DNA of 64,000 nucleotides, from positions 21,717-85,716 of the forward strand of contig CALVEB010000004.1 of the NCBI GenBank assembly GCA_944326465.1. Direction: 5' to 3'. Below are positions 11,168 to 56,295 of this stretch, piece by piece. The notes beneath the pieces were generated by a model. The model worked only from the letters and a program-made list of their open reading frames with translations. It searched no databases and had not been told where the DNA came from. Every line of letters begins with the position of its first letter. Positions within the stretch are counted from its first letter, which is position 1. A program made the translations under genes and the position numbers. This DNA is from Candidatus Gastranaerophilales bacterium. Lineage in GTDB: Bacteria; Cyanobacteriota; Vampirovibrionia; Gastranaerophilales; Gastranaerophilaceae.

Positions 11168-11244
11168 TGGGGCGTCTGATGGGATTCGAACCCATGCATA
11201 TCGGAACCACAATCCGAGGTCTTAACCGCTTGACGACAGACGCC
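11168..11244 (-). tRNA. tRNA-His (anticodon GUG), with G-1 and an encoded CCA
   Basis: The reverse complement GGCGTCTGTCGTCAAGCGGTTAAGACCTCGGATTGTGGTTCCGATATGCATGGGTTCGAATCCCATCAGACGCCCCA folds as a cloverleaf. The acceptor stem is GCGTCTG/CAGACGC, the anticodon stem is TCGGA/TCCGA with loop TTGTGGT, and the T-arm is ATGGG-TTCGAAT-CCCAT. The extra 5' G pairs with discriminator C, which is the tRNA-His hallmark. Confidence 0.9.
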
Positions 11245-23507: not shown

Positions 23508-23663
23508 ATGGAAGAATTGACAGATAAGGAATTAAATGTACTAAAATATTTAAAACAGGGATTAGCGGTGAACGATATAGCGGAACGTTGTGAAATTAGT
23601 CGTCATACGGTAACTGCCATAATATTGCATTTACATCGAAAGGGTGCTGTAAACAATACTTAA
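23508..23663 (+). CDS. Small LuxR/GerE-type HTH protein
   Basis: MEELTDKELNVLKYLKQGLAVNDIAERCEISRHTVTAIILHLHRKG. RBS AAGGAG before ATG 23508. Confidence 0.65.
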   Translation: MEELTDKELNVLKYLKQGLAVNDIAERCEISRHTVTAIILHLHRKGAVNNT

Positions 23664-23689
23664 CAACTGCTGCATATAATTCTGTGTCC

Positions 23690-23925
23690 ACCCTCTCCAA
23701 GGGGCGAGGGGCGGACGTAGTCCGCTCTTATACACTAGACACCCGCTAGAGGCACACAAAGTGTGCTCCTACACACTGGACACCCGCAAAAGTTAACGGG
23801 CATCCAGTATATAAAAGTGGACTGTGTCCACTCGCAAGGCGCCGACTCCCGCAAATCGTAGCAAAACTGCTGCGGTATGACGGATAAAAAACATGCAACG
23901 TGGAAAATCTCACAAGCATGTTTTT
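23690..23925 (+). repeat. Array of GC-rich modules: a variable perfect hairpin plus a conserved tail
   Basis: GCGGAC-gta-GTCCGC followed by tcttatacactagacacccgc. GGCACAC-aaa-GTGTGC followed by tcctacacactggacacccgc. GTGGAC-tgt-GTCCAC followed by tcgcaaggcgccgactcccgc. Two more hairpins share the loop cgtggRRaatctcaca (23891-23921 and 23979-24010). Confidence 0.7.
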
Positions 23926-23926
23926 A

Positions 23927-23963
23927 GGGGAATAAGGGATTAAGGAAATAAGGGAATAAGTTC
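23927..23963 (+). repeat. Octamer tandem repeat with TAA every 8 nt
   Basis: GGGGAATAAGGGATTAAGGAAATAAGGGAATAAGTTC, with TAA at 23933, 23941, 23949 and 23957. Confidence 0.8.
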
Positions 23964-24034
23964 TTTACAAAAAATAAGGCAACGTGGGGAATCTCACATT
24001 GCCCTATTTTGAAATCCTCTTAATCACTTAGTCA

Positions 24035-24151
24035 CTGTCTTGGATTTGCTCCACGCTCACGGAGACTCGCCTAAGGAGCGTTGCTCCAGTCGGCTCGTTC
24101 CGTTCGCTATCCGGACTCGCTACGCTCCGTCCGTCCGCAAATCCGCTAATC
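24035..24151 (+). repeat. 117-nt GC-rich core repeat, copy A (intergenic)
   Basis: 115 of 117 nt are identical to 46215..46331 by direct comparison. The ends are complementary (GGATTTGC...GCAAATCC) and there is an internal hairpin GGAGC-gtt-GCTCC. Confidence 0.9.
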
Positions 24152-24184
24152 ACTTAATCACTTCGAACTAAGAGGCCAAGCCTC

Positions 24185-25336
24185 TTAGTTCGACACACAT
24201 ATAGCGCGGCGGTTGCTGTTGTTCTTGAAGTACCAGATATTGTCATTGCCGGTCGTGTCGGAAGTGTCGAAGTACCGGTAGTACGCGGTAAGCGCATTGC
24301 GCTCCTCACTGGACCAGTAGTGGTAGCCAAGAGTAAGGGGAGGATTATCTTTGTATTCGTCCTTTACTTTAAGACCTAATTTGTCTTCGTTTGCTCCTAT
24401 TGTTACTTCATTGCCGTTGCTGTCTACATATAAATTACTTGCCAGTTGCGCAAGTTGTGCTCTCGTAGGAAGTTCCATGTCTTTATCTTTACATGCTTTT
24501 ATCGCTCCTGCCCAATAATTGGTTGAGCATCCACTGCTTGTATAGTTCTTATCATATTCACTTGTGCCATCACATGTGTCGATAGGGGTGTTTGCGGCAA
24601 AATCTGTGCTAAAGCACATGTCGCCTATAGGGTTATCGCAAGTAGAAAACGCTACACCTGATGATAATTCAATATCTTTTCCAACTCTATTAGGGCCTTT
24701 CTTTCCGTTTACATCTACCATATATGCCATGCAGCTTACCTGACTTCCTGTATCTTCTATTGGATCAGCGTAAGGGCATTCCGGCTGATATGCCATAATG
24801 ACTGTTGTCCCGTCTGCTACTACAAAGCTCATGGTATTTGTATTAGTTTGCCATTCCTTTAATCCCATGCTGCTTGCAGAAGTGAGACCGTTTGTTTCAA
24901 TTTCTTCTAACGCATCGTTCTTACCTGTTGTGACAACTTTAGGTGAATAACATTTGTTGATGTCATCCTTGTCACAGGTTTTGATTACTTTCATGTAGTT
25001 TTTGAAAGTGTTCATGAAATCCTCTGTAGTATCGTGTCCTGTCATTACACCGTCTACGTTCATACGGCGTACGGTTTCAGTGAGTTTCTTTTCCCACAGG
25101 TCTTTTGCTGTAGACCATGCTTTTTCATTGTGGTTCTGGATGAGACCAGGAAGGGTTAACGCGGCAACGATGCCGATAACCGCGAGGGTTATTAGGACTT
25201 CAGCCAAAGTGAATGCTGCTTTAGCGTGCGCCTGAGTGTAAGAGCGGGCTTGTCCACCTTTAGCGGTTGCCCGAGCGTAAGAGCACACTTGTGTGCCTTC
25301 TGCTAACGTAAATGCGTAATTTTCTGTTCTAGTCAT
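24185..25336 (-). CDS. Type IV pilin-like protein P2 (prepilin-type N-terminus, DUF1566-like C-terminus) with a 99-nt in-frame repeat insertion in the leader
   Basis: MTRTENYAFTLAEG-[insert]-AAFTLAEVLITLAVIGIVAALTLPGLIQNHNEK...VDVNGKKGPNRVGKDI...NYWAGAIKACKDKDMELPTRAQLAQLASNLY. RBS AAGGAGG. Confidence 0.7.
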   Translation of the reverse strand: MTRTENYAFTLAEGTQVCSYARATAKGGQARSYTQAHAKAAFTLAEVLITLAVIGIVAALTLPGLIQNHNEKAWSTAKDLWEKKLTETVRRMNVDGVMTGHDTTEDFMNTFKNYMKVIKTCDKDDINKCYSPKVVTTGKNDALEEIETNGLTSASSMGLKEWQTNTNTMSFVVADGTTVIMAYQPECPYADPIEDTGSQVSCMAYMVDVNGKKGPNRVGKDIELSSGVAFSTCDNPIGDMCFSTDFAANTPIDTCDGTSEYDKNYTSSGCSTNYWAGAIKACKDKDMELPTRAQLAQLASNLYVDSNGNEVTIGANEDKLGLKVKDEYKDNPPLTLGYHYWSSEERNALTAYYRYFDTSDTTGNDNIWYFKNNSNRRAICVSN

Positions 25337-38737: not shown

Positions 38738-40474
38738 TTATGCTGCGCGGTTACCGTAAAAGTTAACCATTTTGCTTTTCAGAAATTCGTTGTTAGCCTG
38801 ACTGGTTTCAATAGGAGCAGTTGGTTGTTCTGTCATTTTTTTAGCGTTGTTGCGTTCTTCACGCTTGTTTGTCATATAGATATTCAGTCTTGGAATACCT
38901 ATACCGAGTACCAGTGCAGAGTAAGCATAACCGATTAGCTGCGCAAGGTTAAGAACATTCAGTTTGCCCCTTGTAACTTTGTCTGCTTCAGGAAGTAATT
39001 TCATCATTTTAGAGAAACTTAAAGCCTTACCGTGTTCACCAAGTGTTGAAACTTCTGCTTTTCTCAAGCCTTCAATTAATACTTCATCTTTTGTCTTTAA
39101 TGAAGAATTAATAAAGCGCTTGAATACATTTGTGCTTTTTTCCGCTGTATTTAATAAAGATTTAGACTTGTCAAGCGCCATAACTGCACCTTTGGTAACA
39201 AGGCTGCCGATAATCAGCAGGTTAAGGAATCCTAAAGTATCCTTGATAGCGGATTCTCTGAGTTCGTCCTTGTCACGTGCCGCAAAAAGTCTTGACATAA
39301 TCGTCATACCATAAACGAATTTTAACTGGTTAATTGTCGGCGTCATTCCTTTAAATTGAAGTTTTGACAGGAATTTAGACGGTTTAGTTGTGATTGTAGC
39401 AAGAGCGCCGATTCCGAGAGCCAGCCCTGTCACTACTTTCATTAATGCGAATGATTTAGAATCATCTTTCTGGCGGCCTTCAACTCCGACAAAACCATCA
39501 CTGCCTGTACGCTTTTTAGTCAAATATCTGTTGACCGGTTGTACAGACATACCGAATAACGCCGCAAATCCTAAACCGAGTGCGGAACGTTTGAGGTTAA
39601 GGGATTTAAGACCTTTTACAAATTTGTTATTAGTATGGATGTCAGTATTGATAAATTCTTCTATAACATTATCCTGAACAAATGTTTTTGAAATATTCAA
39701 AATGTTTTCAACAGTTGTTCTTAAAGTCGTAGTTGATGTTCTTACTCCGTTGTCAAGCTTAGCTGTTTCTTTGCCGCCTGTTGCTTCTGAAATCACATTG
39801 ACTATACGTTCAAGTCGTTCATTGAAAAGCTTTTTCATAAACTTTTTGTAGTAATTTTTTTGATTCTTAAAAATTTCAGCATCTTCCATGTTGTGAACGA
39901 TATCGTCAATTAACATATTTTTTGCGTCATCAGAGATGGTTTTATACCCGTTGTTGAAGGTAGAAATTCTGCTCAAAATATTGTTTGCAAAATCTTTTTT
40001 AATTTCTTTCGGCAGCACTGAATATTGTCCTGTAGAATCTTTTGTAAGTGCTCCGCCATTTGCAAGATAATTTTTCAATGAAGTATGCCATTCTGATGCC
40101 ATAATATCAATAGCATTGTTGTCAGCATAAATTCTGTGAGCCTTTATACCATACTTATTGTTAAATGCAGCAGCTAAAGCCATGCCTGCAACGGTTCCGT
40201 AGACACCAACCATAGAATGGTTGAAGGTACCGCAAGATTCACGGATAAAAGTTTCAGTTCCGGCCTGCGGTCCGCGTTTACGCATATCAGTCCAGGTTCT
40301 CGGGATAACCATAGAGCCTAAGTCAACAGCATTAGCGCCCCATGCCTGATTGGTTTCGAAAAATCTCAGACCGCCTGTCACAATGTCCATTGCGCCGGTA
40401 AATCGAGGCTGTTCATCATTGTTGTTATTATTTAGTTTTTGTTCAAATTTTGGGGTAATATATTGTACTTTCAT
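38738..40474 (-). CDS. Large uncharacterised membrane protein, paralog B
   Basis: 578 aa with an AAGGAG RBS. Shares VIPRT, FIRESCG, VQPVNRYLTKKRTGSDG and LQFKGMTP...ARDKDELRESAIKDTLGFLNLLIIGSLVTKG with 40486..42189. Confidence 0.7.
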   Translation of the reverse strand: MKVQYITPKFEQKLNNNNNDEQPRFTGAMDIVTGGLRFFETNQAWGANAVDLGSMVIPRTWTDMRKRGPQAGTETFIRESCGTFNHSMVGVYGTVAGMALAAAFNNKYGIKAHRIYADNNAIDIMASEWHTSLKNYLANGGALTKDSTGQYSVLPKEIKKDFANNILSRISTFNNGYKTISDDAKNMLIDDIVHNMEDAEIFKNQKNYYKKFMKKLFNERLERIVNVISEATGGKETAKLDNGVRTSTTTLRTTVENILNISKTFVQDNVIEEFINTDIHTNNKFVKGLKSLNLKRSALGLGFAALFGMSVQPVNRYLTKKRTGSDGFVGVEGRQKDDSKSFALMKVVTGLALGIGALATITTKPSKFLSKLQFKGMTPTINQLKFVYGMTIMSRLFAARDKDELRESAIKDTLGFLNLLIIGSLVTKGAVMALDKSKSLLNTAEKSTNVFKRFINSSLKTKDEVLIEGLRKAEVSTLGEHGKALSFSKMMKLLPEADKVTRGKLNVLNLAQLIGYAYSALVLGIGIPRLNIYMTNKREERNNAKKMTEQPTAPIETSQANNEFLKSKMVNFYGNRAA

Positions 40475-40485
40475 TATGTTTCTCC

Positions 40486-42189
40486 TTACGAATTAAATAT
40501 TGCCCGAAACGCGGGATTGTGCTTGATAGATGCTTTTACGATGTCCGATGACAACGTAGAGCCCGCGGCGGCGCCGGTCGCTGCTCCGGCTTTAGTATTC
40601 GCAAGTTCTTTTGCTTTGCGTTCTTGTTCTTTTTTGTTTGTAACTGTTCTGTTATATAACGGGATAAATACACCCAGTGCAATAAGTGAGAATGCAAGGT
40701 TACCTATCTGACAGATTGTACGTAACCGCTTGTCTTTTACAGTTGAAAGTTCATCAGTCGATTTGAGTGCGGTATGTTTTGTCCAGTGCCAGAATTTTTC
40801 AAGCGGATTTGCATTACGTTTCAAAGGTTTTAGTGTATTTATTAATTTTGCATCAGGATCTTTGTGTTCAATGTATGTTGCAATACCTTTAGCCGCAAAA
40901 TCACCTAAGAAATAGAAGCTCAGGAATGTTGCAATATCTCGGATTGTTGCTTCACGAAGATCATTAGCATCTTCTGATGCGCCCATACGGCTTGCAAATG
41001 TTGCGGTTGAAATTATTCGCGCCTGATCCATAGACGGGAATTTGCCTTTGAATTGCAGCATATTAAGTGTAGGAAGTTTCATCATAGAAAGCAGTCCGAC
41101 ACCAATCATAGAGCCGACAGAAATTATTTTTTGTTTAAATAATTGTGCTTTTTCTTCTTTAGTCGGTTCTTTATATTCCTTGCCGTTATAAATCGGCGCA
41201 CCTTTTTGTCCTGCTGATTTGTGGGTAAGCCATCTGTTAATAGGCTGCATTGATATAGCCAGCGGCAGTATTACAGCTAAACCGCCCAAACTTTTCCAGT
41301 TAACAAATTTGCTTGCTTTTTTAGCGTAAGTTTCTAACTGCGATGCGTCTGTTATATTTTCCTTTGCAACCCCTCTCAGGAATTTAACCATGTTTGAATA
41401 AATACTTTCGAGGTTGGTTGAATGGAATTTGTTTTCGCCTTTGAATTTTAAGTTTTCAGTAATATGAGTTTTAGCCGCAATTATATTAAATGCCTCTTTT
41501 GACAATTTAGAGCCATTGTGTTCATCATGTACAGCTTTTACAAGTTTTTCAAATATTTTGTCATCTTCTGAGGTCAGAATTTTGTTGAATGCTTTTTCAC
41601 TCTTGCCGTCAATACCTGATATATCGTAGGTTAAATTTTTGAAAGCGTTGAATAATTTTTCATCGCCTGACCCTTGAGCATTTTTGTAATAATGCGTAAT
41701 TTTTTCAATAGTGTTTGTATCAGCCCAGTTGCCGGCAAGATTTGATTTGTTAAACGGTTTCATCAGAGCCGGCACAAACTTGTTCAACCCGCTTGCAATA
41801 CCGTAAACGATATAGCCCGGGATAAGGCAGTTTACAATGAGTCCGGAGGATTCACGTCTAAATGCTTCCATACCGGCAAGCAGATTGATTTTATGGTGTT
41901 TGTTTTCTTTGTTTTCATCTTTTTTCGGATTTGTATCTTTTGGTACCGCAAAAGTTTCAACTAATGTACGCGGAATAATTGCTGTTGCTAGATCCAGCAC
42001 GGTTACATTTATCATCGGATGTTTTTCGCATTGCTGTACGAGCTTAATCCCGCCTTCTGCTGCTTTTTTTGCGTATGTGTGTGCCAGACGGCTTGCAGAA
42101 TCCCTGAATCCGCCAAATGATACGTCATTTTTGTCCTGACGCGGGGTATATTTGCTATTTATATCACTTAATTTAATTTCACTAATCAT
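40486..42189 (-). CDS. Large uncharacterised membrane protein, paralog A
   Basis: 567 aa. IIPRT, FRRESSG, MQPINRWLTHKSAGQKG, LQFKGKFP...SEDANDLREATIRDIATFLSFYFLGDFAAKG. It ends 11 nt upstream of paralog B. Confidence 0.7.
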   Translation of the reverse strand: MISEIKLSDINSKYTPRQDKNDVSFGGFRDSASRLAHTYAKKAAEGGIKLVQQCEKHPMINVTVLDLATAIIPRTLVETFAVPKDTNPKKDENKENKHHKINLLAGMEAFRRESSGLIVNCLIPGYIVYGIASGLNKFVPALMKPFNKSNLAGNWADTNTIEKITHYYKNAQGSGDEKLFNAFKNLTYDISGIDGKSEKAFNKILTSEDDKIFEKLVKAVHDEHNGSKLSKEAFNIIAAKTHITENLKFKGENKFHSTNLESIYSNMVKFLRGVAKENITDASQLETYAKKASKFVNWKSLGGLAVILPLAISMQPINRWLTHKSAGQKGAPIYNGKEYKEPTKEEKAQLFKQKIISVGSMIGVGLLSMMKLPTLNMLQFKGKFPSMDQARIISTATFASRMGASEDANDLREATIRDIATFLSFYFLGDFAAKGIATYIEHKDPDAKLINTLKPLKRNANPLEKFWHWTKHTALKSTDELSTVKDKRLRTICQIGNLAFSLIALGVFIPLYNRTVTNKKEQERKAKELANTKAGAATGAAAGSTLSSDIVKASIKHNPAFRAIFNS

Positions 42190-42718: not shown

Positions 42719-43642
42719 ATGAAAAAAGCTTTTATTATATTATGTATTATACTGTCAGTAAATACCGGATATGCAGGTCAGTATACTGCTACACTGGATA
42801 AAATAGAGAATGAGATTTTCGGGTTCCAGTACGGTAATGAATCCGATGAAACCCGATTAAGCCGTATAGAAGAAAGTGTTTACGGGCAAGCCGCAGGCGG
42901 TACCACACAGGACAGAATTGCAAAATTAACAAAAGACCTTTCTGCAAATGAGATAGGAAAAGAAATAGAGCCTAAAGAAGATACTTTTATGGATGAAACA
43001 GGCGATTATGCAGATACACCATCCGTTGCGCAGGGTCCAAACGTAGATTATCCGGCTGTTAATGAATTAGAAATGCAGGTTTTTAAAACTGAATACAAAA
43101 ACAAAAATATAAATGACAGACTTGCGAATCTTGAAAAGCAAACATTTGGCAAGACATTTAATGACGATTTAAGCACGCGTGTAGACAGGCTTAAGGCTGA
43201 AATCAAACCCGCATCATTAATGGATAATCAGATAGCGCAATCTTCAAATAATTTTTATGATGATGACGTTGTTGAATTAGACAAGGATTATCACCTTGAC
43301 AGATATGAACCGCCTTCATTTGATTATGACGCATATAATGCAAGACATTCCTCTCCTGCTCCGGCTCCCAAGCGGACTAACCTTGCAAGCATTGAAAAAT
43401 CAATGTTTAAACAGACCTATAACAGTGATGATATTAATAATCGTCTTTCACGCATTGAATCCGAAATGTTTGGAACAACATTTGCGAACGACACGCAGCG
43501 CGACCGTATAAACAGAATTGCAAGTGCATATACCGCGCAAAAAAGTGCCGGAACATACGATTCAAATAAATTTTCACAAAATATGGCAACGGCAATGCAA
43601 ATAGGCACACTTATATTAATGGTACTGGCCTGTGTTTTATAA
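42719..43642 (+). CDS. Secreted, C-terminally anchored protein with a triplicated L-x-x-(I/L)-E-x-x-x-F-G module
   Basis: Signal peptide MKKAFIILCIILSVNTGYAG and a C-terminal TM segment IGTLILMVLACVL. Motifs: DKIENEIFGF/RLSRIEESVYGQ; VNELEMQVFKT/RLANLEKQTFGK; ASIEKSMFKQ/RLSRIESEMFGT. Confidence 0.7.
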   Translation: MKKAFIILCIILSVNTGYAGQYTATLDKIENEIFGFQYGNESDETRLSRIEESVYGQAAGGTTQDRIAKLTKDLSANEIGKEIEPKEDTFMDETGDYADTPSVAQGPNVDYPAVNELEMQVFKTEYKNKNINDRLANLEKQTFGKTFNDDLSTRVDRLKAEIKPASLMDNQIAQSSNNFYDDDVVELDKDYHLDRYEPPSFDYDAYNARHSSPAPAPKRTNLASIEKSMFKQTYNSDDINNRLSRIESEMFGTTFANDTQRDRINRIASAYTAQKSAGTYDSNKFSQNMATAMQIGTLILMVLACVL

Positions 43643-45480: not shown

Positions 45481-45804
45481 TTAAAGTAAATCATTTGTAA
45501 TCTTGTATAAAAAGCGTAATTTATTTTGGTCAGTCTCAATTATTTTTATATTTTTCAGTATTTTTTCCAAATACTCCTGATTTGTGAAAAAATCCTGAAA
45601 GTTATATAAATCTTTTTCTTCTACATTCAAAGCGGCCGCTATTTTTTCAAGGTTTTCAGGTGAGGGATAATTCCTGCCGGTTTCTATTTTGCTCAAGCTT
45701 GAGATGTCAAGTCCCAGTATTTCAGAAAAATTTTCCTGCGTAATACCTTGTGATTTTCGAAGTGATTGTATGCGTTTGCCAAGTTTAATTTTTAAGTTAG
45801 TCAA
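45481..45804 (-). CDS. XRE-family HTH transcriptional regulator (TTG start)
   Basis: LGKRIQSLRKSQGITQENFSEILGLDISSLSKIETG. Paralog of 9537..9866. AAGGAG lies 6 nt before the TTG. Divergent from P4. Confidence 0.85.
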   Translation of the reverse strand: MTNLKIKLGKRIQSLRKSQGITQENFSEILGLDISSLSKIETGRNYPSPENLEKIAAALNVEEKDLYNFQDFFTNQEYLEKILKNIKIIETDQNKLRFLYKITNDLL

Positions 45805-45854
45805 AATTTGCTCCTTATTAAGATTTTAAAATATATAAAAATATTTTTAATGTA

Positions 45855-45917
45855 TTGTTAGGCAATTTTATACTTGACAATAATGCTTAATAATCATAAA
45901 ATAGTTTTGTTAAGCAA
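45855..45917 (+). promoter_or_regulatory. P4 promoter flanked by repeated TTGTTA(G/A)GCAA sites
   Basis: TTGACA (45874-45879), 17-nt spacer, TAAAAT (45897-45902). TTGTTAGGCAA lies at 45855-45865 and TTGTTAAGCAA at 45907-45917. Confidence 0.5.
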
Positions 45918-45934
45918 AATAAGGAGTCAAAAAT

Positions 45935-47380
45935 ATGTCTAATAATGCATCTACAAAGTATGCTTTCACTCTCGCGGAAGGCAGGGTGGACAAAGTCCAC
46001 TTTAATACTTGGAAAACTGCTAAAGGTGGACAAATCCAAGACATCGAACGCGAAGGCAGGCTAGCCTGCACCACCACTCAGGCGCCCGCAAAAGCGCAAC
46101 GGTGCCAATACGTCATTGCGAGCGAATGCGAAGCAATCCAGCCTATTGAAAAAGCGGGATTAGAACAACAGAATACGGGACTAATTCATGTAAAGAACTT
46201 ATTCCCTTATTTCCCTGTCTTGGATTTGCTCCACGCTCACGGAGACTCGCCTGAGGAGCGTTGCTCCAGTCGGCTCGTTCCGTTCGCTATCCGGACTCGC
46301 TTCGCTCCGTCCGTCCGCAAATCCGCTAATCCCTTATTCCCTTGTAGTAAACGCGTCGCCTTCACTCTCGCCGAGGTCCTCATCACCCTCGCGGTTATCG
46401 GCATCGTTGCAGCACTCACATTACCGGGGCTCATCCAGAACCACAATGAAAAAGCTTGGTCTACCGCGAAAGACCTCTGGGAAAAGAAACTCACAGAAAC
46501 CGTCCGCAGAATGAATGTCGACGGCGTAATGACCGGTCACGATACAACAGAAGCCTTCATGAACACTTTCAAAAACTATATGAAAGTAATCAAAACCTGT
46601 GATAACTCTGAGCTTAATAAATGTTACAGTCCGGAATTTGTGTTGACCGGTAAAAGAGATAATTTAGAGAAAAAATATATAGAAGATTTCAAAACAGCAG
46701 GTGACTTAGGAATAACAGATTGGAATACTAATACAATATCATTTGTTGTTGCAGATGGTACAACAGTTATTATGGCTTATAATCCAAAGTGTCCTTATGC
46801 AGATCCAGTTGAAGATACTGGCAGTCAAGTATCTTGTATAAGTATGATGATAGATGTAAACGGCAAAAAATCTCCTAACCGCGTTGGTAAAGATATTTTG
46901 CTCTCTAATGCAACCATTTCCACCTGCGATAATCCGATAGGAGATATGTGTTTGAGTACATCTTTAAAAATAGAAAAGATAGATACTTGTGACGGAACAA
47001 GTCCCTATGATTCGTTTTTTTCGTATGATAATGTAGGAAATGCTTGTGAAAATAATTACTGGGCAGGTGCTGTAAAAACTTGTAAAGACAATAACATGGA
47101 ACTGCCGACCGGTGCGCAATTTGCAGAAATAGCAAATAATTTATATGTAGACCGTAATGGTGACCCGATAAAATTAAAAGTAAACGGCAATAAAAGTAAT
47201 ATAAAATTTAAGGATGAATACAAAGACAATCCTCCTATTGCTCTTGGTAATTACTGGGTAAATGACGATCAGGGGTCGTTCGCAAGGATGCATTATTTTG
47301 GAGGAGAGAGTACCAGCGGAAACAGTAGTACTTCTAAACATAACAGTGCAGCCCGCAATGTTCTATGTATTTCAAATTAG
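45935..47380 (+). CDS. Type IV pilin-like protein P4 (DUF1566-like C-terminus) with a 396-nt in-frame repeat insertion splitting the prepilin leader
   Basis: MSNNASTKYAFTLAEG-[132 codons of repeat DNA]-VAFTLAEVLITLAVIGIVAALTLPGLIQNHNEK...IDVNGKKSPNRVGKDI...NYWAGAVKTCKDNNMELPTGAQFAEIANNLY. RBS AAGGAG. Confidence 0.65.
   Translation: MSNNASTKYAFTLAEGRVDKVHFNTWKTAKGGQIQDIEREGRLACTTTQAPAKAQRCQYVIASECEAIQPIEKAGLEQQNTGLIHVKNLFPYFPVLDLLHAHGDSPEERCSSRLVPFAIRTRFAPSVRKSANPLFPCSKRVAFTLAEVLITLAVIGIVAALTLPGLIQNHNEKAWSTAKDLWEKKLTETVRRMNVDGVMTGHDTTEAFMNTFKNYMKVIKTCDNSELNKCYSPEFVLTGKRDNLEKKYIEDFKTAGDLGITDWNTNTISFVVADGTTVIMAYNPKCPYADPVEDTGSQVSCISMMIDVNGKKSPNRVGKDILLSNATISTCDNPIGDMCLSTSLKIEKIDTCDGTSPYDSFFSYDNVGNACENNYWAGAVKTCKDNNMELPTGAQFAEIANNLYVDRNGDPIKLKVNGNKSNIKFKDEYKDNPPIALGNYWVNDDQGSFARMHYFGGESTSGNSSTSKHNSAARNVLCISN
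46215..46331 (+). repeat. 117-nt GC-rich core repeat, copy B (inside the P4 reading frame)
   Basis: 115 of 117 nt are identical to 24035..24151. It is flanked by reverse-orientation octamers (cttattcccttatttccc and aatcccttattccctt). Confidence 0.9.
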
Positions 47381-47407
47381 ATTAAAATAGTTTTAAATAA
47401 TTCGGGC

Positions 47408-47437
47408 TTGACCGGAGTTTTACGCTTGTACTATAAT
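47408..47437 (+). promoter_or_regulatory. Sigma-70-type promoter of radA; geometry implies a leaderless mRNA
   Basis: TTGACC (47408-47413), 18-nt spacer, TATAAT (47432-47437). ATG 47444 lies 7 nt after the -10 element with no SD sequence. Confidence 0.5.
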
Positions 47438-47443
47438 CTACTT

Positions 47444-48817
47444 ATGGCAAAAGTAAGATCTAAATGGATATGCACAGAATGCGGGTATGAATCAGCCGGT
47501 TATCTTGGCAAATGTCCTGAGTGCGGCTCCTGGGGAAGTTTTCAGGAAGAAATTCAATATGCTCAAAAGCCTGTTATTAACAATTCACCCGCTAATGAAT
47601 TTGTTAATACTGAAAAACCCGCTCTATTAAAAGATATTCATATTGGTGAAGAAGTCCGTGTAAGTACTAATATATCAGAATTTGACAGGATTTTAGGCGG
47701 CGGACTTGTGCAGGGCTCTCTTGTTCTTATTGCCGGTGATCCGGGGATTGGAAAATCAACAATACTTTTACAAACCAGCGGAGAACTGTGCAAAAGTAAC
47801 AAAAAAGTTTTATATGTATCTGCTGAAGAAAGTGCCAGCCAGCTTAAATTACGTGCTCAAAGGCTTAACATAGACTCTGATAACCTGTTCGTTTATCCGC
47901 AGACAAGTATGGAAAATATTAAAACAGAGATTGAGGATATTTTACCTGATGTGGTGGTTATTGACAGTATTCAGGCAATTTATTCCCAAGGCGTGGCAAG
48001 TTCTGCGGGCAGCGTTACTCAAATTCGGGAATGCTGTAATCTTTTGATGCATATTGCAAAAACGAAAAATATTACTGTTGTTGTTATAGGCCACGTTACA
48101 AAAGACGGGAACATTGCCGGTCCAAAAGTGCTTGAACACATGGTTGACACAGTAATTTATTTTGAAGGTGACAAATATAAATCCTACAGAATGCTGCGTG
48201 CTATGAAAAACCGTTTTGGAAACACATCAGAAGTAGGCATTTTTGAAATGCATTCCGACGGACTTAGAGAAGTTAAAAATCCTAATGAACTATTTCTAAA
48301 CGAGCGCTCACAGGTTGCAGTACCCGGCAGCGCAATAATTGTCACCAATGAGGGTACGCGGCCTTTACTTGTAGAAGTTCAGGCGCTTGTCGGCACAACG
48401 CCTTACCCGACGCCGCGTCGTGTCACAAACGGGGTCGATACTAGCAGATTACTTCAAATTCTTGCGGTACTTGAAAAAAGAGTAGGTTTAAATCTCTCTA
48501 AACAAGATGTTTATGTAAACGTTATGGGAGGTATTGACGTCGATGAACCGAGTGCGGATCTAGGAATCGCCCTTGCTGTTGCAACCTGCGCACGTGATGT
48601 TGTCGTTGACAGTCAAACTGTTATTATCGGAGAAATCGGTCTATCCGGCGAAATTCATCCGGTCAGTAATATAGAAAAAAGATTGAATGAGGCTGCTGCC
48701 TCAGGCTTTAAAAAAGCTATAATACCTTATGCTAATACAACTGATTTTGATAAAATTCAAATTGTACGCGTAAAACGTCTGATTGATGCAATTACAGCCT
48801 GCGTTACGCCGGTATAA
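47444..48817 (+). CDS. radA: DNA repair protein RadA/Sms
   Basis: Zn ribbon CTECGYES..CPECGSWG, Walker A GDPGIGKST, KNRFG motif, and a Lon-like C-terminal domain. Confidence 0.95.
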   Translation: MAKVRSKWICTECGYESAGYLGKCPECGSWGSFQEEIQYAQKPVINNSPANEFVNTEKPALLKDIHIGEEVRVSTNISEFDRILGGGLVQGSLVLIAGDPGIGKSTILLQTSGELCKSNKKVLYVSAEESASQLKLRAQRLNIDSDNLFVYPQTSMENIKTEIEDILPDVVVIDSIQAIYSQGVASSAGSVTQIRECCNLLMHIAKTKNITVVVIGHVTKDGNIAGPKVLEHMVDTVIYFEGDKYKSYRMLRAMKNRFGNTSEVGIFEMHSDGLREVKNPNELFLNERSQVAVPGSAIIVTNEGTRPLLVEVQALVGTTPYPTPRRVTNGVDTSRLLQILAVLEKRVGLNLSKQDVYVNVMGGIDVDEPSADLGIALAVATCARDVVVDSQTVIIGEIGLSGEIHPVSNIEKRLNEAAASGFKKAIIPYANTTDFDKIQIVRVKRLIDAITACVTPV

Positions 48818-53177: not shown

Positions 53178-53289
53178 ATCCTTATAATTTTCTTATAATT
53201 CGTATAACTAAAAGATAACACAAAAACTTCAGACAGTGAAGTGTTAACTTTCTTTATTTTTTATTGACACATTATTTTTTTTGCCTTAG

Positions 53290-53437
53290 TCTGAGGTCAG
53301 AGGAAATGAAGTGGAGATCTTCAACTGTAGCCGCAGCCGTAAAAGTCGGAACACTCGAAGAAAAGCTTTGGTCACGTGCTTTTTGACCATAGACAAAATC
53401 TTTTTTTCAGTGTCCTCTAAGAATAGAGGATTTTTTT
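53290..53437 (+). promoter_or_regulatory. Candidate cis-regulatory RNA or sRNA ending in an SD-sequestering hairpin plus T-run
   Basis: TCCTCT (53413-53418) pairs with AGAGGA (53425-53430). That AGAGGA is the only SD-like sequence, 8 nt before ATG 53439, and it is followed by T7. A second AGAGGA at 53299-53304 could compete for the TCCTCT. Additional hairpin GGTCA...TGACC at 53370-53388. Confidence 0.35.
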
Positions 53438-54214: not shown

Positions 54215-55720
54215 ATGAACATAACACCGTTTCATGATAATGAAACAGCAAGACAGCAAAGAAATTTAACAACAACGCAAAAACGCGCTAATTCTAATAC
54301 AAAAGAGGGTGTTCTTGTAAATAATTTTATAAAAGATGCAGATACCTGTGTTAATCTTGATAACACTGTTGATACACTGATTATATCAGATCGTGTCAAG
54401 CTGCCGCAAAAGCTTAATGAAGATAAAATAGTTAAAGATAAAACTCTTCTACCGATAAGCGGCGCGGCGTTAGGTGTAATGGGAGTATTTGCAGGAATCA
54501 CGGCGTTTATCAGTCATAACACAAAAATTGCCACCAATATGGCAAAGAATATGATTAAAGAAAAATGGCTGCCTACTCTGACGCGTAATATATCTATAAA
54601 CGATGAAACATCACAGGCGATATTCCAGATGGTTACAAACCCTAACCGTAAAACGATTATTGCGGGTGTTGGGGTGTTTTCGCTCACGGCGACTGCATTT
54701 ATGGGAAAAACTTTCTTTGACGGGTTCAAAGATATCTGGGTTAAAAAGCGCGAAGCGGATATTCAAAAAAACTTGCAAGAGCAGCTTATTGATGTAGAAA
54801 CCCAGTCCTTTTCAGGCAAAATCCAGATTATAAGAAACACCCTGTCTGACAAAGCAAAAGAGTTAAATAAATATATAGCGGAAGAAGATGAAGCAATCCT
54901 CCCGAATTTTGGTAAATCCACTCAAATTGCGTTTATGGGCGGTAAACAGCAATCGTATAATGAGAAAAAAGCAAGTCCGCTGGCGTTTTTTGCGCTTGGG
55001 GCGGCAACTGTTGCGGGAATTATAGGGCTTTCTTATCTGTCTTTAAAGAATTTAAGTAAAAGTAAAGGGCATTTAAGAGATTATATATCATATACTGAGG
55101 ACATCATCAGTAAAGTTGTCAAAAATTCAACAGAGCAAACAAGAAAGCAGGACAGTGAAAATCTTGCGTTTCTTTTCCAGTCAATAGACGCATCGCCTGA
55201 AACAATTAAGCGGCTTATGGAAGGTATCAAATGGGAAAAGCCGGAATTTGTGAATGATTTTATAAAAAATACTGTATCTAAAATTCAAACATCAGCGGTT
55301 AAGGTGAATTCGCACATTGGCGGTGACGGAACGCCAAAACCTGCGTTTTCATCGTTTGTTGATGATTACAGGGCGTTTTTATACAACTGGCTTTTAGATA
55401 CTGATAATGCGCAATTCCGTCAGCTATTCTTCGGAATGACCGGTGCAGCGGCTGTTTCTTATGGCGGTAAGCTTGTAGGAGATGCTATAAAAGAAGTTCA
55501 GGTCAAGAAAATCAATGCGCAAACCGAGCTTGATTTGCAAAAACGGCTTGTATCAACCGAGTTACGCAACTTTAAATCTAAAAAAGATGCGGCAATTCAG
55601 CCGCTTATGGAGGAATTCTATAAGCAGGTGCAGAACGGCAAGCCTAAAGAGCAGCTTAAAACAATGGCGGACAACATTCTGTTTGAAGTCAAAAACGGCC
55701 CGCCGTTTGTATATTCTTAG
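54215..55720 (+). CDS. Uncharacterised multi-pass membrane protein (501 aa)
   Basis: ORF with several hydrophobic segments (LLPISGAALGVMGVFAGITAFI; IIAGVGVFSLTATAFMG; LAFFALGAATVAGIIGLSYL; LFFGMTGAAAVSYGG). Confidence 0.6.
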   Translation: MNITPFHDNETARQQRNLTTTQKRANSNTKEGVLVNNFIKDADTCVNLDNTVDTLIISDRVKLPQKLNEDKIVKDKTLLPISGAALGVMGVFAGITAFISHNTKIATNMAKNMIKEKWLPTLTRNISINDETSQAIFQMVTNPNRKTIIAGVGVFSLTATAFMGKTFFDGFKDIWVKKREADIQKNLQEQLIDVETQSFSGKIQIIRNTLSDKAKELNKYIAEEDEAILPNFGKSTQIAFMGGKQQSYNEKKASPLAFFALGAATVAGIIGLSYLSLKNLSKSKGHLRDYISYTEDIISKVVKNSTEQTRKQDSENLAFLFQSIDASPETIKRLMEGIKWEKPEFVNDFIKNTVSKIQTSAVKVNSHIGGDGTPKPAFSSFVDDYRAFLYNWLLDTDNAQFRQLFFGMTGAAAVSYGGKLVGDAIKEVQVKKINAQTELDLQKRLVSTELRNFKSKKDAAIQPLMEEFYKQVQNGKPKEQLKTMADNILFEVKNGPPFVYS

Positions 55721-55752
55721 AAGGGAATAAGGGAATAAGGAAATAAGGGAAT
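55720..55752 (+). repeat. Octamer array (GGGAATAA-type); left arm of a 33-bp imperfect inverted repeat
   Basis: GAAGGGAATAAGGGAATAAGGAAATAAGGGAAT, with TAA at 55728, 55736 and 55744. It abuts ATG 55753. Confidence 0.8.
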
Positions 55753-56295
55753 ATGTGTATTCAAGCGATAAATACAACTTATAACAATCAAATCTGTCAA
55801 ATAAGAAATAGTTTCATAAATGAAACGAACTTATTCCCCTATTCACCTATTTCCTTATTCCCTTCTGATTCTTCTTCAGTCAAATATGTTACATCCACTA
55901 CATCAAACTACTGTTCCTTTAACCAGCCTAAAGTGGATTACTTTGTTAAACAAAAGGAACAGGCGCTGCCGTATTTGACAGATATTCTCCAACACTCCAA
56001 TAATGAGGCTCAAATAACAGAAACATTATATATAGTAGACAGAATGATTGAAAACGGCACTAAAGGCGTTGATAAGATGTATCCGACACTTTCCCGCTTT
56101 AATAATACTAATTCACCGTTTATACAGACATTTCTTGCCGGAATATACAGAAAAATACAGGTTCCGGACGCATTTGGCCCTCTGGTTGCCATGTTAATAC
56201 GCAATTCTCTTAACCCTCCGCAAACAAATTTCGATCCGAATGAAGAGGTCGGAGGTGCAATACTGGCCTACCTTTCAGACCGTTTTAGACATTGA
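55753..56295 (+). CDS. Hypothetical protein; the C-terminal half is weakly HEAT-like helical
   Basis: 180-aa ORF. Codons 27-38 are encoded by the reverse octamer array (NLFPYSPISLFP). The start is uncertain. Confidence 0.4.
   Translation: MCIQAINTTYNNQICQIRNSFINETNLFPYSPISLFPSDSSSVKYVTSTTSNYCSFNQPKVDYFVKQKEQALPYLTDILQHSNNEAQITETLYIVDRMIENGTKGVDKMYPTLSRFNNTNSPFIQTFLAGIYRKIQVPDAFGPLVAMLIRNSLNPPQTNFDPNEEVGGAILAYLSDRFRH
55830..55865 (+). repeat. Reverse-orientation octamer array; right arm of the inverted repeat
   Basis: CTTATTCCCCTATTCACCTATTTCCTTATTCCCTTC. Its reverse complement matches 28 of 33 positions of the left arm. Confidence 0.8.

Follow-up and report, generated by a model that had tools for sequence, protein, structure and literature searches.

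Background

Repetitive extragenic palindromic sequences (REPs) and Rickettsia palindromic elements (RPEs) have been described within open reading frames (ORFs), with clusters coding for 43-82 aa (PMC10969869, PMC3733652). Descriptions are also available for REPs tagged with GTAG or CGTC and for the genes of REP-associated tyrosine transposases (RAYTs), which in some species have long inverted repeats in their flanks (PMC3733652). In this study we analyse a 64-kb stretch of DNA (hereafter the window, to which all coordinates refer unless a locus is named) from a metagenome-assembled genome (MAG) of Candidatus Gastranaerophilales, and in it the gene P4, an ORF of 481 aa at 45935..47380 (+). P4 is best explained as a member of a greatly expanded type IV pilin-like family, the 5' end of which has been colonised by small GC-rich repeats resembling REPs and transposable elements of the miniature inverted-repeat kind (MITEs).

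The closest known case is that of the in-frame palindromic repeats in Rickettsia and other bacteria, and the first-pass annotation of this DNA had aptly drawn the analogy with RPEs, which are in-frame palindromic repeats within working genes. In both cases short palindromic families stand in ORFs, the frame is unbroken and the genes appear to remain functional; the P4 insert includes a multi-copy palindromic repeat in an ORF, keeps the frame and is missing from a relative, as an RPE-like insertion should. In addition, one of the modules found here (module B) carries the CGTC tag known from REPs. New here are the location, the insertions being confined to a prepilin leader that would be removed by cleavage; the very long putative pro-regions that a prepilin peptidase would have to handle, with nested mosaics of up to 245 codons; the occurrence in ~90% of one family of ~40 genes, against scattered housekeeping genes for RPEs; and the multi-frame reading, in that one module is read in several frames, whereas each RPE family codes for a conserved peptide.

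Results and discussion

Repeat DNA inserted in the leader of P4

The leader of P4 is interrupted by truly inserted repeat DNA, because the site is empty in a syntenic ortholog of ~90% nucleotide identity (locus L054), where MSNNASMKYA runs directly into FSLAEILITLAV, and because another locus (L055, 99% identical nucleotides) has the mosaic and lacks the nested 112-nt element at 46215-46326, the net difference being 111 nt or 37 codons. An empty site in a related genome, which had been named as a check by the first-pass annotation, is thus provided by L054. The insert is not an assembly artefact, since the identical P4 protein is found on 10 contigs and the two of these loci that were fetched come from different samples. 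DNA loci bear L numbers; those of the family survey were fetched by tblastn with the mature pilin part as query, and belong to Candidatus Gastranaerophilales MAGs; being fetched in this way rather than from gene calls, the sample is free of gene-caller bias. The features of the P4 locus are as follows.

45874..45902, +: sigma-70-like promoter, TTGACA, 17-nt spacer, TAAAAT; top promoter-like site in 45600-47500 (11/12 positions)
45921..45937, +: Shine-Dalgarno sequence AAGGAG (45921-45926) and ATG (45935-45937), both unchanged in L054 and in L055
45935..45964, +: native short leader MSNNASTKYA; the L054 equivalent is MSNNASMKYA, then FSLAEILITLAV
45965..45979, +: first copy of the FTLAE-coding motif, without a hydrophobic helix behind it; Pfam N_methyl does not match
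45980..46050, +: module A1, hairpin GTGGAC-AAA-GTCCAC (45986-46000) and a tail coding for TAKGGQ; a module type also present in the paralog P2 and many homolog leaders
46051..46095, +: module A2, hairpin GCAGGC-TA-GCCTGC, coding for GRLACTTTQAPAKA; 45-nt matches of 89-91% in the leaders of L003, L009, L019, L029 and L040
46096..46189, +: module B, CGTC-tagged palindrome (46111-46139, CGTCATTGCGAGCGAATGCGAAGCAATCC) and spacer; its peptide ECEAIQPIEK recurs in homolog leaders
46190..46214, +: octamer array C1, left part, GTAAAGAACTTATTCCCTTATTTCC; the array type also bounds the RAYT gene of L062 and the MITE at 55720-55866
46215..46326, +: the 112-nt element D, MITE-like and nested in the octamer array; its terminal inverted repeats (TIRs), GGATTTGC/GCAAATCC, are of 8 bp
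46327..46345, +: octamer array C1, right part, TAATCCCTTATTCCCTTGT
46346..46360, +: context of the predicted cleavage site, S-K-R-V-A, with a basic residue and Ala at -1
46361..47380, +: mature pilin-like protein, beginning FTLAEVLITLAVIGIVAALTLP; N_methyl match at residues 142-162, dN/dS against P2 0.16

The P4 promoter is kept in the empty-site ortholog L054 as well as in L055. At the start of the gene, the strong ribosome-binding site (RBS) and the short leader MSNNASTKYA-FTLAE that had been noticed at first sight were found again, with AAGGAG at 45921-45926 and ATG at 45935. The AFTLAE codons are present at 45962-45979 and again at 46358-46375, so that the spacing first given as exactly 396 nt, or 132 codons, holds from start to start, and the frame is open. 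Behind the first FTLAE, the frame of P4 continues as G-R-V-D-K-V-H..., crossing 378 nt of repeat DNA rich in GC. It is only the second copy that leads into the pilin helix, as had been proposed: VLITLAVIGIVAALTLP stands behind the second FTLAE copy (46361) and not behind the first, and N_methyl matches residues 142-162 alone. The second copy also has no start of its own, in accordance with the earlier reading, as neither ATG nor GTG occurs in frame between insert and second motif; the only in-frame TTG codons before it are two, at -47 and -45 codons, both without a Shine-Dalgarno sequence.

The G+C content is 0.525 in 46001-46400 (52% for the 378-nt insert) against ~0.3-0.4 for most of the window. 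Among the six frames of the insert, that of the ORF is the sole open one, and each of the others has several stops. The GC-rich hairpins and octamer repeats reported for the insert are present as 6-bp GC hairpins and octamer arrays, the octamers around element D being CTTATTCC-like, with ~two or three units on either side; the supposed 117-nt core repeat is to be corrected to the 112-nt element at 46215-46326. A copy of element D, 98% identical, is present at 24035-24146 in the 3' flank of P2, and the longer match between 46198-46343 and 24019-24163 is 93% over 146 nt. On the whole, 21 copies of element D were counted in the sequence examined. Together with its small size, its 8-bp TIRs and its presence/absence polymorphism (L055), this copy number places it with the MITEs. 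Target-site duplication was not seen for element D, as the empty site reads TTTCC-T-TAATCC and the filled one TTTCC-[112 nt]-TAATCC. The copies in leaders are all forward (8/8), against 5 forward and 8 reverse for the 13 non-coding copies; this is what a filter against stops would give, because the open frames of the element are mostly forward (two forward, at most one reverse).

A family of pilin-like genes with repeat-filled leaders

The layout of P4 is shared by P2 in the same window, for which the features are listed below.

24185..25336, -: paralog P2, same layout, 99-nt insert, MTRTENYAFTLAEG...AKAA then FTLAEV; N_methyl score of 22.6 bits, exceeding the cut-off
23700..24184: repeat cluster in the 3' flank of P2, with REP-like hairpins, a copy of element D, octamer arrays and two terminator-like hairpins

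Among the 120 best database homologs, on which all homolog counts here are based, the true FTLAEV is preceded by more than 30 residues in 108 and by more than 100 in 34, with a maximum of 235, while a normal leader of at most 15 residues is found in only 11. The extensions are mosaics built from a limited set of modules. This shows that a repeat-filled leader is the normal state of the whole family and is not unique to P4. One MAG alone, BRZ_E__bin153 (loci L003-L046), has ~40 dispersed paralogs, and each complete one has its own Shine-Dalgarno sequence and ATG, which rules out a system of silent cassettes like Neisseria pilS in the sampled genome. In these paralogs the first and last ~100 nt of the coding sequence are GC-rich and the variable middle is AT-rich. 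When the leader peptide alone was used as query, only short ORFs and truncated leaders were obtained, and no other protein families bearing the modules. In the literature searches, no account was found of pilin leaders in Melainabacteria that are long and built from repeats.

Selection on the open frame

A GC-rich block was defined as at least 90 nt before FTLAEV, and the blocks observed are of 100-630 nt. At 36 of 37 loci, which are not independent trials because the paralogs share modules by descent, the block lies wholly within an ORF starting at a Shine-Dalgarno sequence and ATG in AT-rich DNA. For 48 leaders (5316 codons), the two remaining forward frames hold 363 and 453 stops, and the reverse frames 209-320. 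The blocks vary widely in length and in the order of their modules, which shows that many separate insertions and deletions have all kept the frame. In addition, the net length change is a multiple of three in 68% of the gapped leader-leader matches, against 21% of the matches between 3' flanks; the net shift per match was taken here instead of raw gap lengths, which are noisy with many 1-nt gaps.

The peptide itself is unconstrained. Element D is read in two frames among the DNA loci and in the third frame in the proteins P0012, P0016, P0018 and P0037. For module E (28 copies), the variability by codon position is flat (0.078, 0.056 and 0.088), without third-position bias, and a change in its stem is compensatory (GGCC..GGCC to GACC..GGTC) with the peptide altered; one conserved peptide per repeat family is thus not what is found here. 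Residues 1-143 of P4 are modelled by AlphaFold2 with confidence (pLDDT) below 50 and without secondary structure. Judged from these sequence patterns, it is the openness of the frame, together with the hairpins of DNA or RNA, that is selected, and not the leader peptide.

The duplicated motif and the fate of the insert

For a mature pilin to arise from P4, the first-pass annotation had left two options, translation of the repeat DNA as a very long leader or its removal at the DNA or RNA level. The first is favoured by our analysis; the second has found no support, the frame being open at 36 of 37 loci. The annotation had further likened the two FTLAE copies to a target-site duplication, an interpretation which does not agree with the sequences. 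The two copies in P4 are identical at 15 of 18 positions (9-17 of 18 at other loci), and the first differs from the empty site of L054 at 6 of 15 positions, being closer to its own second copy. For P2, a comparison of the FTLAE codons between the copies gives 11 matching nt out of 15, or 14 out of 18 when the Ala codon ahead is included. Over the homologs, the upstream copy is present in only 35 of 120, and it is absent from two-thirds of the long leaders. A transposon-style duplication is rejected on these grounds, the copies being identical neither to each other nor to the unoccupied target, and so is the combined proposal of target-site duplication with excision between the FTLAE copies, given the copy identity, the empty site and the missing upstream copies. 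In other leaders the unit of FTLAEG plus hairpin recurs, sometimes twice. The duplicated FTLAE is best read as a probable old scar, left by a motif-carrying module or by recombination between paralogs, and would have no part in removing the insert.

It might still be argued that the insert is removed before or during translation, through excision between the 17-19-nt repeats, splicing or ribosome bypass, to give a prepilin with a short leader, since direct repeats flank the insert, a hairpin (45986-46000) stands directly behind the first copy, and recombination between the repeats would restore MSNNASTKYA followed by FTLAEV exactly. We regard this as very unlikely. Removal leaves no reason for the insert to stay open, so that the open frame would be unselected, yet it is open at nearly all loci while the other frames are filled with stops. 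Moreover, the repeats needed for excision are missing upstream in most homologs (present in 35 of 120) and diverged in P2 (11 of 15 nt in the FTLAE codons), and the insert-bearing protein is identical on all 10 contigs that carry it. For splicing, Rfam gives no intron or ribozyme at E-values up to 10, and the fold of the whole insert has a z-score of only -1.86. As to bypass, the locus has in common with T4 gene 60 and the yeast mitochondrial byp elements a GC-rich insert in AT-rich coding DNA, flanking matches and a hairpin after the first copy; bypassed inserts, however, need no open frame and usually start with a stop codon, whereas no stop stands behind the would-be take-off site of P4. 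Bypass is unnecessary here, because the insert is kept open and in frame.

The identity of the insert as a structured RNA or self-splicing intron was also considered and dropped, because the folds are only marginally better than shuffles (z from -1.9 to 0 for RNA and per-module DNA folds), and no relevant Rfam family was found: neither the scan of the whole window at gathering thresholds nor that of 45700-46600 with E-values up to 10 gave a hit in the insert, and a tRNA and an AdoCbl riboswitch elsewhere were all that they returned.

Another rival is that the gene is dead, or that the long ORF is an annotation illusion with the true start downstream of the repeats. Many REPs at ORF N-termini are in fact probably extragenic, with the true start downstream (PMC3733652), and one module type of this family ends in ...GMRAA followed by F, with ATG 4 codons before F in several paralogs. 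For P4 this is extremely unlikely. Neither ATG nor GTG stands between the insert and F143, the two TTG codons have no Shine-Dalgarno sequence, and a pilin cannot start at F+1; it is only upstream of the insert that a strong promoter and RBS occur; and while the kept frame speaks against an untranslated 5' region, a dN/dS of 0.05-0.16 speaks against decay.

The latter values come from the comparison of P4 with P2. Over the first 85 mature codons, the differences are 6/2/32 by codon position with a dN/dS of 0.05, and over the whole mature part the dN/dS is 0.16; dS is ~1 even in the conserved 5' part. The early impression that P4 differs from P2 mostly at third positions and is no decaying pseudogene is borne out by these figures, and the mature part of P4 is under purifying selection, which points to a functional gene.

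Predicted cleavage site and mature pilin

P4 resembles type IV prepilins, including those with the long type IVb leaders, in its basic leader, the motif F-T-L-x-E, a hydrophobic helix of ~20 residues and a predicted cut before Phe. From residue 143, FTLAEVLITLAVIGIVAALTLP provides Phe at +1, Glu at +5 and the hydrophobic helix. The Pfam family N_methyl (PF07963) matches residues 142-162 of P4 with 19.6 bits, below the cut-off of 21.2, while P2 scores 22.6, and many homologs have a precomputed hit. In the AlphaFold2 model of P4, a helix at 145-161 and a confident C-terminal domain are predicted (pTM 0.41), and a Foldseek search of this model against the PDB gave nothing below E = 1.

The differences from known prepilins concern the residue at -1 and the length of the leader. 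The canonical prepilin motif has Gly at -1 (PMC8578077), whereas Ala stands there in P4, in P2 and in all 120 homologs. Basic residues beside the site are kept, with K or R at -6..-2 in 107 of 108 long leaders; these leaders have a median net charge of +3, and none has a transmembrane-like stretch. Known type IV pilin leaders have ~6-30 residues, against 142 in P4 and up to 245 in the family, and we know of no precedent for leaders of 100-245 residues. Among the window ORFs scanned, no pilD was found; the gene has been reported in a Gastranaerophilus genome (PMC5877343).

Probable translation of the insert as a discarded pro-region

Putting these results together, the P4 insert is probably translated as a junk pro-region and cut off at the second site. 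Ribosomes would be expected to read through the insert, because promoter, RBS and ATG are upstream and no usable start is downstream. They would read straight through the 378-nt mosaic and produce an N-terminal extension of 142 residues, unstructured and mildly basic, which would remain cytoplasmic as the hydrophobic helix inserts into the membrane. The prepilin peptidase would then cut at the second site, ...KRVA followed by FTLAEV..., and the whole extension would be discarded. The leader sequence would be free to vary because everything before the cut would be thrown away, and in this way the leader would be permissive for repeats: in-frame and stop-free insertions could survive, pile up and nest in one another, while those breaking the frame or bringing stops would switch the gene off and mostly be lost.

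Several points weigh against this account. It is from sequence that we infer the translation and cleavage of the P4 leader. The residue at -1 is Ala and not the canonical Gly of prepilin sites, the literature offered no counter-example to leaders of ~6-30 residues, and processing by PilD at 100-245 residues is putative. The shared descent of the modules makes the 36 in-frame loci fewer than 36 independent trials. A share of ~90% of the family with inserts exceeds what simple tolerance predicts, if neither an already colonised ancestor nor a hot spot at this site is assumed, and neutral tolerance leaves the tight clustering of the repeats around this gene family unexplained. Finally, frame-broken alleles exist (L057, L061 and L049).

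If translation with later cleavage holds, a part of a protein destined for removal would be a safe harbour for selfish repeats within a gene. Since the sole trace of selection in such a leader is to stay in frame and without stops, the spread of repeats against purifying selection could be directly measured here. Prepilin peptidases would process pro-regions ~ten times longer than any described, with Ala at -1. It would also follow that REPs are not always extragenic, and that the trimming of 'spurious' N-terminal extensions would be wrong here. The recognition of pilins in metagenomes would be affected, as most proteins of the family have no Pfam hit or a borderline one only. Human and animal gut Gastranaerophilales carry a little-known pilin-like surface family of ~40 members ringed by repeats.

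Frame-broken alleles and possible exchange of pilin bodies

The frame-broken alleles are of three kinds. At L057:2001-2560, in an ortholog of P4 with 98-99% identity, a 32-nt tandem duplication in module B makes the leader ORF stop at 85 aa and leaves the pilin body without a start; such an allele might be naturally OFF, belong to a pseudogene or reflect an error in the scaffold. In L061, compared with L062, the octamer array has lost 35 nt, whereby the pilin falls out of frame, the leader being otherwise identical. At L049:2821-3010, from another genus of Gastranaerophilaceae, the Shine-Dalgarno sequence and ATG are 1 nt out of frame at a G8 tract, which could be phase-variable or a sequencing error.

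These alleles raise the question whether the leader repeats serve as an ON/OFF switch, that is, phase variation atop ordinary translation of the in-frame state, in which slippage of octamer arrays, short tandem duplications and homopolymer tracts would take the pilin out of frame and restore it. All three may be counted in its favour, and so may the 8-nt indels that are common in the flank arrays, which show that the arrays do slip; besides, a large surface-exposed family suits combinatorial switching. The likeness to Neisseria Opa (CTCTT) and PilC (poly-G) lies in repeat units that are not multiples of three in the leader-coding part, in a surface multigene family, and in frame-broken alleles at the leader repeats. 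However, 36 of the 37 loci are ON, whereas classical phase-variable families show many OFF members per genome. Likewise, the octamer counts are nearly constant among in-frame leaders, and in P4 element D is flanked on either side by only ~two or three array units. Single contigs are the source of the OFF cases, that of L061 being short and that of L057 a scaffold, so that they may be pseudogenes or assembly errors. Unlike in Neisseria, most copies here are in frame, the repeats are debris of mobile elements rather than one dedicated tract, and any switching is putative. We therefore hold a switch to be unlikely, although the rare frame-broken alleles do hint at surface variation in this uncultured lineage.

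The repeats might also act as portable homology for RecA-type shuffling of pilin bodies among the ~40 loci, with the FTLAE duplicate as the joint; mature segments would be swapped, deleted or moved, and the surface diversified. GC-rich blocks are localised at both gene ends, counted from the F codon at -700..+100 and +900..+1700, and the background further off is 3-7%. Like leaders are joined to unlike mature parts: L061 and L062 diverge right after FTLAE, and the window and L055 diverge after 46950. These divergence points suggest that recombination has its breakpoints within the gene. At L058:2001-2381 (also at L059 and L060; 11 contigs) promoter, ATG and a leader made of repeats are present without a pilin body, and at L056:1240-1660 there is the opposite, a P4-like pilin without a start codon and with a terminator and flank-type repeats ahead. 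The greater likeness of the first FTLAE copy of P4 to its own second copy than to the empty site would also fit a joint. Nevertheless, shuffling is rather improbable as the role of the repeats. Each complete copy in the genome with ~40 paralogs has its own Shine-Dalgarno sequence and ATG, hence there are no silent cassettes; dS between P4 and P2 is ~1 even in the conserved 5' part, hence no recent conversion has occurred between them; and L056, at 3x coverage, may be a chimeric assembly through a repeat.

Two observations may be added on these loci. In L058, flank-type repeats stand behind the leader and are followed by an unrelated 954-aa ORF, so that the locus looks like a deletion between leader and flank repeats. 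The pilin of L056 is 98% identical to window 46189-46950, element D included.

A wider proposal is that co-option has turned the prepilin leader into a dedicated landing pad and region of control, where repeats of REP/RAYT type are kept, as they would be in the 3' flanks, for ON/OFF switching of pilins or for the exchange, deletion or transfer of their bodies between expression sites. We consider this doubtful; if true, a gut Melainabacterium would have built a surface-variation system from domesticated selfish repeats, and its prepilin peptidase would routinely handle pro-regions of 100-245 residues.

Origin of the repeats

The modules appear to be repeats of REP/MITE type, of the kind spread by RAYTs, because RAYT genes with inverted repeats, tagged REPs and intragenic REPs or RPEs have already been described. 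They are not limited to leaders, and also fill the 3' flanks of the family genes in both orientations. Out of 12 perfect GC-rich mini-hairpins in the window, 7 lie in or beside P2 and P4. A scan of metagenomes with a 28-nt exact word from element D gave no matches, and the association of the repeats with pilins is thus judged only from the window and ~300 kb of fetched loci.

The window itself has no RAYT gene, and one flanked by repeats is found in a related MAG. It is located at L062:2266-2754 in the 3' flank of the pilin gene P0041 and matches NF047646 with 128 bits against a cut-off of 80. Inverted octamer arrays of the C1 type enclose the gene (~2140-2185 and 2793-2825); a hairpin with the GTAG tag, GTAGGTCGGCTTTACTAAGCCGAC, stands at 2202, and an inverted copy of it lies within the transposase ORF at 2503-2530. 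The likeness to REPs, to REPINs (the REP-based elements of RAYTs) and to MITEs includes the clustered GC-rich stem-loops, a RAYT (NF047646) beside a family member and long terminal inverted repeats, the last as in some species (PMC3733652). Element D resembles MITEs in its 8-bp TIRs, its presence or absence in near-identical strains and its two orientations in non-coding DNA. The differences are that REPs are extragenic by definition and the modules here would be translated, and that element D has no target-site duplication. The RAYT of L062 has the octamer arrays in common with the P4 leader, and is a putative mover of the module families.

A second case of repeat DNA within an N-terminus is present in the window. 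A small element at 55720-55866, bounded by inverted octamer arrays (GAAGGGAATAAGGG... and ...CTTATTCCC), gives the ATG and ~the first 38 codons of the ORF 55753..56295, which has no Pfam annotation.

Neighbouring genes

A small and divergent gene of the XRE-type helix-turn-helix (HTH) class is located just upstream of the pilin in the window (45481-45804, -), and such divergent genes are also present at L007, L015, L019, L026, L034, L046, L052, L056, L058 and L062, which suggests that they are paired regulators. At the other paralog, a small ORF (23520-23700, +), which by eye looks like a LuxR/GerE-type HTH protein, directly adjoins the repeat cluster 3' of P2. Beside the pilin-like gene P3 (37936..38661), the regions 38738-42189 (-) and 42719-43642 (+) hold ORFs of 578 and 567 aa without Pfam match, and likewise a 307-aa ORF with a repeated ...RL..LE..FG motif. 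In addition, the window has a tRNA gene at 11171-11243 (-) and an AdoCbl-II riboswitch at 53287-53364 (+), the latter with 37.3 bits, just above the gathering score.

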